NCBI GenBank assembly: GCA_964016885.1
Contig: OZ024741.1
Location: 365,304,001 to 365,368,000, forward strand
DNA length: 64,000 nucleotides
Reading direction: 5' to 3'
Source of the DNA: Eledone cirrhosa
Taxonomy: Eukaryota
Part shown: in pieces, positions 898 to 59,412 of the stretch
How positions within the stretch are numbered: the first letter of the stretch is position 1
Layout of the letters: every line of letters starts with the position of its first letter
Made by a program: the position numbers and the translations under genes
Notes under the pieces: model-generated
The model's input: only the letters and a program-made list of their open reading frames with translations
Databases searched by the model: none
What the model was told of the DNA's origin: nothing

Positions 898-1335
898 GAA
901 AGGTTGTAGACTGGTAAAATTAGTGAAGTGTCGGATAAATGCTATTGCATTATTTGTTCTGTCTCAGGGCGGTGGTTCGGCAGTATCGGTAGAGGGTAAG
1001 ACGCCATGCTTTTCAGCATTGAGTTATGGCCCTTTACGGTCTGAGTTCAAATCCCATCGAGATTATCTTTGCCTTTCATCCCTATTGGGTCGATAAAATA
1101 AAGTACCAGTTACGCAATGGGGTCGATTTAATCGACTTTCCCCTCCTCCCAAATTACTAGCCTTGTGCTTATAGTAGAAACCATTATTTGTTCTGGCTCT
1201 TTACATTCTGATTTCAAGTTCCTCCGAATTCAACCTTGTCTTTCATCATTCTGGGGTCGATGAAATATAGTACTGGTGTTTATTTAATCAACTTTGCTCC
1301 AAACTTTGCAGGAAGTGTGCCTAAATTAGAAATCT
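898..1335 (+). mobile_element. Old degenerate tRNA-derived SINE interrupted by a younger SINE
   Basis: Decayed head at ~898-948. The body resumes at ~1200 with a decayed B-box, the 'ctttcatcattctggggtcgatgaaat' core and a 3' end 'gtgcctaaattagaaatc'. Confidence 0.6.
967..1182 (+). mobile_element. tRNA-derived SINE with 17-bp TSD
   Basis: Starts GGGCGGTGG; A-box-like GGCAGTATCGG; B-box GAGTTCAAATCCC; core GCCTTTCATCC...GGGTCGATAAAATAAAGTACCAG (resembles the Meta-SINE domain, from memory); ends CCTTGTGCTTATAGTAGAAACC. TSD attatttgttctgKctc at 949-965 and 1183-1199. Confidence 0.9.
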
Positions 1336-1344
1336 ATTTATGCA

Positions 1345-1770
1345 AATGTACAACATTTTATGGGACAGGAAAGTCGATTAAATCGATCCTTTTACTTAAC
1401 CGGGGCTATATTTTGTAGATCCTGGAAGGATGAAAGACAAAATTAACCTTGGTGGGATTCGGTCTCAAAAAGTAAAGAACCGGAAATATTACCCGCGAGT
1501 ACTTTTTTCGATGTTCTATCTATTCTGCCAACCCTTCACTCCAATGGCAACAGTAATAAAGGTTTCTGATTGATGCATACGGCTGATAATTTAGGGGAAC
1601 CCAAAATTCAATCACGTTCTCACTATTTCAATATTTTATCGCCTCCTGGAAAAATAAAAGACAAATTTTAATTCTCTGGGATTTAAACTCAGAACGTAAA
1701 GAGATGGAACAAATATCATGAAATAATTTGTCCAACGCTCTAATGATTTTTCCTATTCACCACTCTAACG
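1345..1770 (-). mobile_element. Two decayed SINE copies of the same superfamily
   Basis: Reverse-complement remnants of the core and B-box (ggatgaaagacaaaattaacc..., gggatttaaactcagaacgtaaag). Confidence 0.55.
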
Positions 1771-3182
1771 AGCACAGTAACAACATTATCAATATTGGTA
1801 CAGACAAAGGAACTCCACTTTATCAAGTTACGGTTTTATAGTTCCATTCAGCTTCCGAAATCTTATAACGTGTGGAAATGGCATTAATACACAATGTATT
1901 GTATTTGGTATATTTATTAATGATTATAAGGTAATGCCACAATTATTATCTGAGAAACAAAACAACCCGTAAATGCTGAAATAACATACTGCAACTCATT
2001 CTTATCTTAGACTTCCTTTCATACACCATTGTTCAATGCCTCTAAACATCCTACACAGAGCCATTTCAACATTCTTACTACAGAATTTATTGCGTTTATA
2101 TAGGCTATACAGAGAACGGTTAATATAACATTTTATTTTCACTGGAATACTATCAATTCTAGACTGTCCAATTGGGTTAAATTACAAAATGATCTTACTA
2201 TATGATAAATCTAAATTTATTCTTGTTTCTATGCCCAAACATTGACAGATTCATTTCCTGAGTTGTAACTTGTCAAATAAAGCTAGTCACACTTCACCTG
2301 CGCTTTCAATTGTTTAATTTCTAATGCACATTTCAGTCACATCATATAGAACAGTCGTGGGAAATCTCAGACCCGTTTGGCTTTCTGAATGGTACGCTTA
2401 ATTTCAAAATTGCCTTGAATATTTTAGTCTTATGATGAGCCACATCCTATGCAGCCTCCTGCTCGAAAGGGTTTATCCATGCCTGGTATATAACATTCCA
2501 TTATAAATGATTGTTAAAATATAAATTCATATAACTGAAAAGCAACTAATATTATATTTGCAGTTATATATTCTAAAATGTAGGTGGCATATTCGTATAG
2601 TTAATAAGTTCAATTCTTAACTCCTTTGTACCAGATAGAAGGCAGGGGCGTGACCGCTTTGTCAAGTCTATTCTACTGCAGTCTTGGGTTGTCAAAGAGC
2701 TAGTATTTAATTTCTAATTCACAATATGTCAGACTTATTCTTATCATTTCTATAGAATGTTTCATCACATATGATTGCAAATTACATATACGTACAGCGC
2801 TGGATTAAAAATGCCTTCAAATTTGTTCCGGGTCACTGAACTCTGAATTCAAATCCCATCGAGAGCAACTTAGATTTTCATCCTTTCTAAATCGATAAAT
2901 AAAGTACCAATCCTGAACTGGGTGTTGATTCTTGCTTTCTTTTTCCGACTTGAAGAAGGATGGGCTCCGCCAGGTTTTCATATGCAGACGACATGCATCA
3001 GACGACACCACCAACTGTTAAGTGTCAACAAGTAAAGAGAACATATGTAAAGAACCGGTGGTGTTTATCTATAATTATCTTTTATGAAGGACATGCGGTA
3101 GAGTCGTATGTTTTAAGTCAATCGTGCAGCACATTCTGCAAATATATTCTTCAGTCTCGGGGTAATTAGAACCTTGTGCTGC

Positions 3183-3597
3183 ATATACATATATATATAT
3201 ATATATATATATATATATATATATATATATATATATATACATATATATACATATATATATATATATATATATATATATATACATATATATACATATATAT
3301 ACATATATATACATATATATATATATATATATATATATATATATATATACATATTAATATATATATATATATATAATATACTATATATATATATATACAT
3401 ATATATATATATATACATATATATATATATACATATATATATATATATATACATATATATATATATATATACATATATATATATATATAATACATATATA
3501 TATATATACATACATATATATATATATAATACATATATATACATACATATATATATATATATATATATATATATATGTGTGTGTGTGTGTGTGTGTG
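3183..3597. repeat. Compound (TA)n/(TACA)/(TG)n microsatellite
   Basis: Seen directly. One of many such tracts (e.g. 3920-4030, 8248-8330, 39990-40105, 57480-57666, 61930-62230). Confidence 0.98.
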
Positions 3598-3701
3598 CGC
3601 GAGTGTGATTGTATGTAGGTAAATAACAAAAAATGACAAAACAAATGCCACATTATATGGAAGAGATATGTTAGTTTAACGCTTGAACTAGCAGGAAGAG
3701 C

Positions 3702-57184: not shown

Positions 57185-57465
57185 ACCATCAGGGTTGCAG
57201 GTGTTATATCAGAGTTTTCCTTCTCCTAGAATTCTGCCTTGACAAAGGCTAAGGGGTCATCTCTCCCGGTGATTTTGGATGGCCATTGACTCTTAAGAGC
57301 TCCTTTGCCCTTTGACAGGTTTTGTTTTTAGTCCTGCAGGATGTCCAAAGTCACCCTCCTCACCAAGAAACCTTGGTGGGGTTGCCAGTTTAGTCGCCAA
57401 CGACCCGACCATGAGACAGGTTGTACTGGGATACATGTTACCAGTAGCACCAAGTGGTGACCTGA
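57185..57465 (-). mobile_element. Possible 5'UTR fragment of an RTE-like LINE
   Basis: GC-richer island with 'ggagaaggaaaactctgat...aacacc', resembling RTE 5' regions from memory. No coding support. Confidence 0.3.
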
Positions 57466-57668
57466 CATATACATACAAACATATATATATATATATATAT
57501 ACATATCCCTCTCTCTCTCTGTATATATATATATGTATATATATATATATATATAAATACATACATATATATAAATATATACACATATATATATATATAT
57601 ATATATATATATATATATATATATATATATATATATATATATATATATATATATATATATATATATGG

Positions 57669-57789
57669 ATGTATGTATAGTATATTTGATAATATACTGT
57701 ATGTTTAATTAAAAACAGTTTGAAGACCATTCGCTATGAACGTTTTTAATTAAACATACAGTATATTATCAAATATACTATACATACAT
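57669..57789. repeat. Perfect 48-bp inverted repeat with 25-nt spacer
   Basis: 57669-57716 is the exact reverse complement of 57742-57789. Confidence 0.95.
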
Positions 57790-58983
57790 TCATATATACA
57801 TCGCTATTTCAGAGCACCAATACTATATATATATATATATATATATATATATATATATATATATATATATATATGTGTGTGTGTGTGTGTGTGTGTGTGT
57901 GTGTGTGTGTGTGTGTGTGTGTATGTGTGTTTGTGTATATATATTTAATGACATTTCTATATGGTTCAGATGTTTCTGCAACTTTTCAAGCATGACCAGT
58001 AATCTATATTACCTGCCAGATAAGTTGATGATTTTGGCTACGGCAATGTTTAGTTTCACATTTTTTATATTTGACTCCTTTGATCCTAAGCCACCTTTCG
58101 ATGATACAAAAATGTTTATTTTACTCTATTTCAAATCCTTCGTTGATAAGTTTATATAAGAATCCTTGTTAAGTTATGCTCTAAACCGCAGCTTAATACA
58201 GATATTATGAAAACCTTCCAAATTTCTTAGTCTGAAAATTTCATTCGGTGTTTTCCATTAGAAATATGGTAACCAATGTGTTAATAAACCAAGCTAAATA
58301 CTGAAATATGGATTTTTTCACTGACGTTAATGACACCAGACAACCAAGAACACGGCTGAATGATTTCTATATATTTCCCTAAGGTATTAGTATCGACAGT
58401 AAAGTCACTCAGTTACAACTAGAAATAGATTAAAACCATGAACTTTGATCCGGATCGCTTGAGGCACTCTGTTTCGTCACAAAACCTCTAGGATGTTAAA
58501 CAAAGAAACAAATCATAACCCCTTTAGAAATCATATGGCTTGAATTAAAGTTGCTAAACAGATAAGATGTACAATCAGTTTTCTATGATAGTTTCTAATT
58601 TAAGCACTTGGCCAGTATCTTGTAGGAAAGAGCAAATAATTATATGAAACTCAGTATTTTACTGATAATATATTTTATCGATCGGGGAATGATGAGGGAT
58701 GACGTTGATCTCAGTAAGATTTGAAACTAGAACATGGAGAGCCATTTTTTTCCAATGCACTAGCGATTCTTCAAATGTACTGTTCTCCACTCAGTTATGT
58801 ATAATCAGTTATTATATAGACAGAAGAAACTGGCCTTGTGCCAAATGTAGAAACAATTATATAGGGGGAAAATTGAGTCGTTACAGCGTCGGATTAAATG
58901 ACTCAGTATTTTCTTCCGATCACGGCACTCTGAATTCAAATCTCACTGATACCAGCTTTTGCCTTACATTATTTCTGTGTTGA

Positions 58984-59412
58984 GGGGATTAGCAGTATCG
59001 GTAGAGAGTCGGACACCATGCTTTGCAGCATAGAGTTACGGTCCTTTACGGTCTGAGTCCAAATCCCGCCAAGGTTAACTTGCGGGGTCGATACAATAAA
59101 GCACCAGTAATGTAATGGGGTCGATTTAATCGACTTTCCCCTCCCCACAAAAATTACTGGCCTTGTGCCTATACTAGAAATCATTATTTCGGTGTTGATA
59201 GGGAGATAGAATAGCAGTATCGGTAATGGGTCGGACGCCATACTTTGCAGCATAGAGTTACTGCCCTCTATGATCTGAGTTCAAATCCCGCCGAGGCTAA
59301 CTTTACCTTTCATCCTTACGAGGTCAATAAAATAATGTACCAGTCACGCACTGGGGTCGGTTTAATCGACTTTCCCCTCCCCCAAAATTGCCTTGTGCCT
59401 ATATAAGAAATC
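58984..59412 (+). mobile_element. Two SINEs in tandem (58984-59182 and ~59199-59412) separated and flanked by three TSD copies
   Basis: RttatttcKgtgttga at 58968-58983, 59183-59198 and 59413-59428. Confidence 0.9.

Follow-up and report, generated by a model that had tools for sequence, protein, structure and literature searches.

A window of 64,000 nucleotides from Eledone cirrhosa (contig OZ024741.1 of assembly GCA_964016885.1, positions 365,304,001 to 365,368,000, forward strand) contains copies of a short interspersed element (SINE) and of long interspersed elements (LINEs) of the Tx1 group, which share a short 3' end and are both followed by ATTAT. An initial annotation of this window had proposed that the SINE is mobilised by the Tx1 enzyme. 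The assembly surveyed here comprises 2,995,841,428 bases, with chromosomes of up to 443 Mb; frequencies were estimated from an even sample of 118 stretches of 10 kb each (1.18 Mb in total), and genome-wide SINE counts are exact-pattern matches to short-form ends.

SINE and LINE copies in the window

The SINE occurs in two forms, a long one of about 216 nt and a short one of about 185 nt (overall 185–216 nt). On the plus strand the long form is found at 967..1182 (216 nt, with A- and B-box-like motifs and a target site duplication (TSD) at 949/1183) and as a tandem pair, copy 1 at 58984..59182 and copy 2 at 59200..59412, in which a target of about 16 bp is present three times (58968, 59183, 59413). 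The span given in the initial annotation ended at 59412, where a SINE indeed ends, but GTTAT follows it and not ATTAT. Short-form copies on the same strand lie at 9561..9748 (188 nt, 19-bp TSD at 9542/9749) and at 36385..36566 (10-bp TSD at 36375/36567); the latter lies in antisense orientation within an older copy of Tx1, close to the boundary between open reading frames (ORFs) 1 and 2, both flanks being collinear with Tx1. On the minus strand, a short-form copy at 24848..25028 is situated inside (ATT)n, with the 3' end of a Tx1 copy on one side and that of a Dong/R4 copy on the other, another at 41886..42046 has an internal deletion and a 14-bp TSD (42059/41885), a long form with a deletion is present at 52988..53191 (TSD 53209/52987), and a 5'-truncated copy at 50033..50088 consists of the 3' end only. 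An older, diverged copy at 54771..54909 (plus) has the same tail; a 3' remnant at 55016..55054 (minus) is followed by ATTAC, and a remnant of the tail alone at 58830..58855 (plus) by ATTAT. Family members of greater age and divergence, several of them lacking a clear tail, were seen at 1190–1720, 2842–2923 and 52040–52230.

All eight window copies examined (8/8) contain TGGCAGTATCGG and GAGTTCAAATCC, or near variants, which are A- and B-box-like motifs, respectively. A head of this kind suggests a tRNA-type SINE, which would be transcribed by RNA polymerase III from these boxes. By the SINEBase definition such a SINE is at least 60% identical to a tRNA species; ARAGORN detected 0 tRNA genes and Rfam gave no tRNA match, direct alignment to host tRNAs not being part of this search. 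The element is short and non-coding, with at least 100 interspersed copies bearing TSDs, as is usual for SINEs. In the even sample 264 copies covered 37,327 of 1,180,000 bases, which corresponds roughly to 670,000 copies or about 3% of the genome and bears out the abundance claimed earlier; exact short-form ends numbered 157,002 genome-wide. This SINE probably corresponds to an octopus family that already has a name. A text search of the MetaSINE supplement (one file left out) gave no match to the SINE body motif; the central part may resemble the Nin/Inv domain of DeuSINEs. Octopus SINEs OK, OR1 and OR2 were reportedly described by Ohshima and Okada in 1994, and the present SINE may be one of these.

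On the minus strand the Tx1-group LINEs are arrayed head to tail, with (ATT)n between the copies; the family labels TxA, TxA2, TxB and TxD are our own. The array includes a TxA2 copy with decayed ORFs at 10272..16080 (5' limit approximate), whose tail is nearest to that of the SINE; a full-length TxB copy of 6011 bp at 16156..22166, between (ATT)n runs; a 5'-truncated TxA copy at 25083..30396 (5' limit approximate); an older copy from the TxD side of the tree at 33023..38687 (limits approximate), which has lost its 3' end and hosts the nested SINE; and a 3' fragment with the common tail, followed by (ATT)7, at 38694..39071. A LINE on the plus strand at 22113..24817, which is Dong/R4-like by its C-terminal motifs, ends in (AAT)n, does not have the common tail and supplies target DNA on the opposite strand. 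In relation to the microsatellite, SINE and Tx1 are on one strand and Dong/R4 is on the other.

ORF2 of the TxB copy (16406..19813, minus), which the initial annotation had proposed for a retrotransposition assay, is open over 1135 amino acids and encodes an APE endonuclease, a reverse transcriptase and a C-terminal zinc-binding motif (Pfam Exo_endo_phos, RVT_1 and zf-RVT); however, it is 4 residues shorter than in sister copies (full frame 1139 amino acids), and the ORF1 region (19852..22001, minus), with a CCHC knuckle and no Pfam match, is in two frames. The nearest solved structure is human L1 ORF2p (E 6e-51, versus 3e-21 for R2), and this set of domains with L1-type proteins as nearest relatives places the element in the L1/Tx1 group. 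The closest ORF2 homologues carry no clade name, and the tree was made without a named Tx1 reference; target specificity, the CCHC ORF1 and octopus annotations point to the Tx1 clade. A LINE protein fragment matches part of a protein annotated in Octopus sinensis.

Among the other repeats of the window, an ORF fragment at 45070–46137 (minus) without a Pfam match, for which the even sample contained three C-terminal relatives, belongs to a further repeated element, probably of another non-long-terminal-repeat clade. Duplications a few hundred bases long, both inverted and direct, with 84–97% identity were noted locally at 3871–5160, 47802–49961 and 61135–63349; some are flanked by TA repeats and resemble miniature inverted-repeat transposable elements.

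The common 3' end and its insertion sites

The seven Tx1 and SINE 3' ends quoted in the initial annotation were all found at their coordinates, and neither element has a poly(A) tail in the DNA. SINE and LINEs can be aligned over the last 24 nt or so only, with 14–20 identical positions: the SINE tail agrees with TxA2 at 20 of 26–27 aligned positions and with TxB, the family of the copy at 16156, at 14/25 and 18/26. There was no longer homology, the 60 nt upstream scoring 11, 8 and -2 against a shuffle mean of 9.4. With a position matrix built from 90 SINE ends and no LINE ends, the four LINE ends of the window had tail probabilities of 0, 2.6e-5, 2.6e-5 and 5.4e-4 (75,918 non-SINE positions), and the Dong end was at background. 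The tail motif or a variant follows 15/15 Tx1-like C-termini in the even sample (four were read by eye, having been missed by the pattern); it was absent from RTE-like (0/12) and Dong/R4-like (0/19) C-termini and from those of a third probe (0/3), CR1 and L2 not being probed. RTE is thereby ruled out as partner, and no LINE with a better match to the SINE end was present among the ends sampled. A pattern combining LINE-like upstream sequence with the SINE stem gave 832 matches, and among 30 inspected no LINE body with that tail was found (27 loci were SINE bodies, 3 tail only). Tail-like motifs, together with common downstream sequence, were also noticed in three other repeat clusters (L118:-, L145:-, L171:-; L035, L152; L154, L165), where they are probably old SINE remnants inside larger repeats.

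The common tail is predicted to form a stem of 3–4 bp with a 5-nt loop, plus an A-rich run. In 91 distinct LINE tails stem pairs 1–3 were kept in 91, 88 and 85, respectively, and the hairpin was part of the minimum-energy structure in 6/7 folds. TxB has A-U in the stem where other families have G-C, and the SINE stem, GGC/GCC, equals that of TxA2 minus one C-G pair. The loop reads CTTGT, CCTGT, CTAGT or CTGGT in different LINE families; the notion of an invariant CUUGU loop was dropped, as the families inserting at TATC vary it. A hairpin in the tail is likely on these predictions.

The ATTAT bias proposed for the SINE holds genome-wide, ATTATT following 93,127 of the 157,002 exact short-form ends. 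In the even sample, ATTAT came next at 125 of 175 intact SINE 3' ends, compared with a background of 0.27% of positions (taken from the first 78 stretches); each of the five positions was conserved to about 90%, and the sixth was T in 71% (n = 175). Near-identical young SINEs (n = 20) were followed by ATTAT in 17 and ATTAA in 3 cases. For the LINEs, ATTAT came next at 57/60 ends of two families (top hits), a target preference which together with TSDs is a trait of Tx1 elements; LINE TSDs of about 16–19 bp could be read by eye in two cases with unique flanks.

The six SINE TSDs listed initially are present and start with ATTAT on the element strand (949/1183, 9542/9749, 36375/36567, 42059/41885, 53209/52987, 58968/59183). 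By means of a distal anchor, TSDs were located at 39/175 SINE ends in the even sample, against 10/868 shuffled end pairings; their length was 13–23 bp, plus one of 34. At all loci taken together, 326 ends yielded 53 TSDs, with ATTAT on both sides in 38, at the 3' side only in 4, at the 5' side only in 3 and on neither side in 8, of which 4 begin identically on both sides. Since the TSD starts are symmetric, ATTAT must be target DNA, and an element-borne ATT tail of the SINE is ruled out; an apparent 3' excess (33 versus 27 of 39 TSDs) disappeared under a stricter anchor. In the case of the LINEs, some ATT units may have been added. Their 5' junctions were readable by eye in 13 of 20 fetched copies, and in 11 of the 13 some 5 ATT units or more lay ahead of the element, so the long runs predate the insertion.

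Sister families of the Tx1 group carry the same tail and insert before TATCT. Their ORF2 is about 62% identical to that of the ATT families, and they form a supported clade (96/100) inside the same group. Matched patterns gave at least 4,352 ends of the TATC type and 11,028 of the ATT type genome-wide. Directly after short-form SINE ends TATCTA was found 0 times genome-wide, and only 4 SINE ends have TCTATCTA, whatever its register, no more than six bases away; available TATCTA sites (1,289) are half as numerous as those with ATTATT (2,483). The tail alone therefore does not choose the partner, which suggests a second layer of partner choice. Accordingly, the cis signal of about 22 nt postulated initially stands as far as the shared terminal stretch is concerned, but does not suffice to name the partner, because (TATC)n families carry it equally well without SINE insertions.

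The (TATC)n-targeting families form tandem arrays in their repeat (L167:5073-5322, L189-L213, L308, L309). An RTE-like LINE (47067–47745, plus; also L112, L031, L038 and L156) has TAGA units directly behind its ORF as its end, and these are the reverse complement of the TATC target. At locus L112 a TATC-type Tx1 is inserted antisense in the RTE-like tail. ATT-type Tx1 and SINEs occupy the (AAT)n tails of Dong in the same way, and each Tx1 lineage may exploit the tail of another LINE.

Divergence of the short-form SINEs at non-CpG, non-polymorphic sites had a median of 3.4% (5–95%: 0.7–8.2%, n = 70), and long forms are older (cluster medians 11–21%, all sites). Random TxB copies, of which five were scorable (L219 gave no alignment), showed 0.6–7.6%, and TxA copies, as top hits, 0.3%. 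Two rows for nested insertions were left out of the age data; the reference copy itself carries a SINE at that place. A young SINE used as query gave 41 other near-full-length matches at 98–100% identity, and the flanks were unrelated at 20 fetched young loci; the SINE at 36385..36566 sits within an older Tx1 copy. The periods of activity of SINE and LINEs thus overlap, as the pairing demands.

Probable mobilisation by Tx1 ORF2p and other explanations

The observation underlying the initial annotation is confirmed as real and genome-wide, and its interpretation is partly supported: neither a better-matching LINE among the ends sampled nor a lack of ATTAT bias nor separate ages were found. Because the SINE has the same end of about 24 nt and the same ATTAT insertion site as the LINEs, it was likely copied by the Tx1 enzyme, and we consider it probable (about 0.8) that it is mobilised by ORF2p of ATT-targeting Tx1-group LINEs. 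The shared end, the shared junction, TSDs of 13–23 bp, overlapping ages and the exclusion from (TATC)n sites are observed; binding of the hairpin by ORF2p and mobilisation in trans are deduced from the sequences.

ORF2p of an ATT family would recognise the small hairpin at the SINE 3' end and nick the bottom strand at ATAAT; reverse transcription would then be primed at the last base of the element, and a second nick 13–23 bp away would produce the TSD. Very short 5'-truncated insertions of about 11–35 nt, which consist of the tail alone and are in part tandem, exist at L260, L261, L302, L104 and in the window (58830–58855), which indicates that reverse copying begins at the last base. As the TSD regenerates the target, tandem copies such as 58984/59200 could arise.

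This simple model of a tail plus an inherited nick is incomplete. An inheritance of the ATTAT preference had been postulated, and the junction is indeed the same, but the SINE requires only ATTAT(T), whereas the LINEs take long (ATT)n. For the finer specificity we favour, at slightly less than even odds, an account in which read-through RNA, the AUUAU... of the donor locus, would pair with the nicked target primer. The LINE AATAAA is located 6–7 nt from the element end. Polyadenylation cleavage falls 10–30 nt downstream of the signal, and would thus occur within the downstream (ATT)n, so that LINE RNA would carry AUU units; the RNA polymerase III transcript of a SINE would run into its own AUUAU flank. 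Pairing between RNA and primer would give exact, tail-less junctions and bypass poly(A); it would also keep the SINE away from the (TATC)n nicks of sister LINEs that end in the same tail, and the length of target required would scale with the RNA extension, the LINE favouring longer runs than the SINE.

Several points weigh against mobilisation by the ATT-targeting families or against the details proposed for it. Four or more ATT units follow 50/60 LINE ends and 0/20 young SINEs (Fisher P 8.5e-12); after random SINE ends they were found in 11/175, near the 4.9% of all ATTAT sites at which such a run begins. Such a mismatch in target breadth could mean another, less selective partner. The LINE copies behind the 57/60 count and the TxA ages are top hits and biased towards young copies. 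Tails of the TATC families match the SINE tail at 17/25 and 19/26 positions, that is, as well as TxB does. The hairpin is weak (folding z -0.04 to -1.83), and its pairing probability was 0.0–0.59 in four SINE contexts versus 0.81–0.97 in LINEs; only about two compensated stem changes are independent, copies are not independent events, the conservation of stem pair 1 was partly fixed by the search pattern, and stem pair 3 is mismatched in some long-form SINEs. For the pairing proposal in particular, no RNA-templated bases were evident at SINE junctions (ATTAT 3'-only in 4 versus 5'-only in 3 of 53 TSDs), and a TTTT terminator was absent within 80 nt at 10/20 young SINE loci.

The main alternative is a variant of mobilisation by the ATT families which dispenses with RNA pairing, and we regard it as a tentative possibility: their ORF2p would itself discriminate the SINE tail from what is bound by the (TATC)n ORF2p, and the endonuclease alone would pick ATTAT, long runs at LINEs resulting from cis effects or from ATT added by slippage. 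The ATT and TATC lineages are distinct in sequence and tree, families differ in the endonuclease loop ahead of the YLDR motif, and a fourth stem pair is present in 42/51 ATT tails versus 9/40 TATC tails; recognition of a specific loop is known for L2 (PMC4176376). On the other hand, the CTTGT loop of the SINE recurs in the most frequent TATC tail, and the ATT units ahead of the LINE 5' junctions indicate runs older than the insertions.

Less probable, and in our judgement unlikely, is a partner outside the sample, i.e., a low-copy or extinct LINE (a relaxed Tx1 or a member of another clade) which nicks short ATTAT, the abundant ATT families sharing only an ancestral tail with the SINE. The mismatch in target length would be explained, as would a SINE at least 14-fold commoner than ATT-type LINE ends by exact patterns, and in a sample of this size a family of less than about 1,000 copies could escape, or one with CR1 or L2 ends. 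However, SINE copies of 98–100% identity imply a partner whose activity is very recent, which also holds for TxA and TxB, and no candidate appeared in the 30 inspected matches of the targeted pattern search.

Dong/R4 as the mobilising LINE, with a merely coincidental likeness of the Tx1 tail, is very improbable and largely ruled out by strand and sequence: its copies are abundant, fairly young (88–94% identical to the window copy) and often adjoin SINEs, but (AAT)n follows its sense-strand ends instead of ATTAT, the tail motif is missing from the 19 Dong-like ends sampled, and its matrix score is that of background.

Significance and comparison with known systems

The pairing would name the likely engine behind about 3% of an octopus-like genome, and would account for SINEs and 6-kb LINEs piling up head to tail in ATT repeats. 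With sister families of one tail and two targets, the shares of endonuclease and RNA-DNA pairing in the target choice of LINEs become testable, and a cis signal of 24 nt together with an L1-like enzyme that prefers certain sites could be of interest for retrotransposon insertion tools. We advance only with reserve the wider reading that no earlier SINE partner with a shared tail exists for a site-specific Tx1 lineage, and that specificity has two keys: a common minimal 3' hairpin, and pairing of the read-through flank, which would decide between sister enzymes and set the target length. If that were true, several hundred thousand insertions, none at the sister target, would serve as a natural experiment in how RNA helps an L1-like element to choose its target.

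Searches of the open-access literature showed no report of a shared-tail Tx1/SINE pair; the sequences of Repbase, Dfam and SINEBase were outside that search and may hold a prior description. The initial annotation knew of no description of the pairing. For the shared tail this agrees with the searches, but a Tx1-mobilised SINE has a precedent in SINEU (PMC4494074). Further papers entering the comparison were PMC4758252, PMC5804259, PMC3531059, PMC13295347 and PMC2912911. Octopus annotations include recently active SINE, L1-Tx1, Dong-R4 and RTE families (PMC13282606), and for O. vulgaris the classes "tRNA-Deu" and "L1-Tx1" as well as abundant SINEs (PMC13282606; PMC8967140); no analysis of partner LINE, tail or target was seen in the accessible text of these two papers. 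Bivalve SINEs use CR1, CR1-Zenon, L2 and Nimb (PMC11481361; PMC4824008).

A survey of 58 SINE/LINE pairs lists no Tx1 partner and only three shared-tail pairs of the L1 clade, from plants and an alga, i.e., 3 among more than 800 families (PMC3747384). Since such pairs are rare in the L1 group, an animal Tx1 case bears on the question whether strict 3' recognition is ancestral there. ZmSINE2/3 with LINE1-1_ZM and SINEX-3_CR with L1-1_CR have a hairpin with compensatory changes, comparable to the one predicted here; those pairs differ in involving plant or algal L1 and terminal homopolymer repeats, and they are not described as site-specific (PMC3747384). UnaSINE/UnaL2 and ZfL2 have in common with the present pair a short shared 3' end, which contains a stem-loop (in the present pair a predicted one) as the presumed binding site of ORF2p (PMC4176376; PMC3747384), and for zebrafish L2 recognition of the 3' tail was shown to depend on the stem-loop (PMC4176376). 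Pairs of the UnaSINE/UnaL2 type belong to the L2, CR1 and RTE clades and have longer shared tails and terminal repeats, in contrast to a predicted hairpin of 3–4 bp and no terminal repeat in the element here.

With respect to the target, Kibi, Koshi and the crocodilian (TTCC)n and (TTTC)n families of Tx1 are likewise specific for microsatellites, and the accessible text of PMC4494074 mentions no partner SINE for them; the present LINEs differ, by comparison of descriptions, in targeting (ATT)n and (TATC)n. For the crocodilian SINEU, mobilisation by Tx1-Mar was argued mainly from the common target, along with age and common heads derived from snRNA (Kojima 2015, PMC4494074); for the 3' half of SINEU-1 that work finds no matching LINE. 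Both systems have in common a mobiliser of the Tx1 clade deduced from a common target and overlapping age, and tandem insertions. SINEU has snRNA-derived heads, a Mariner target and no 3' match, whereas the SINE described here combines a putative tRNA-type head with A- and B-box-like motifs, the target ATTAT or (ATT)n, and a 3' end shared with its candidate partner.

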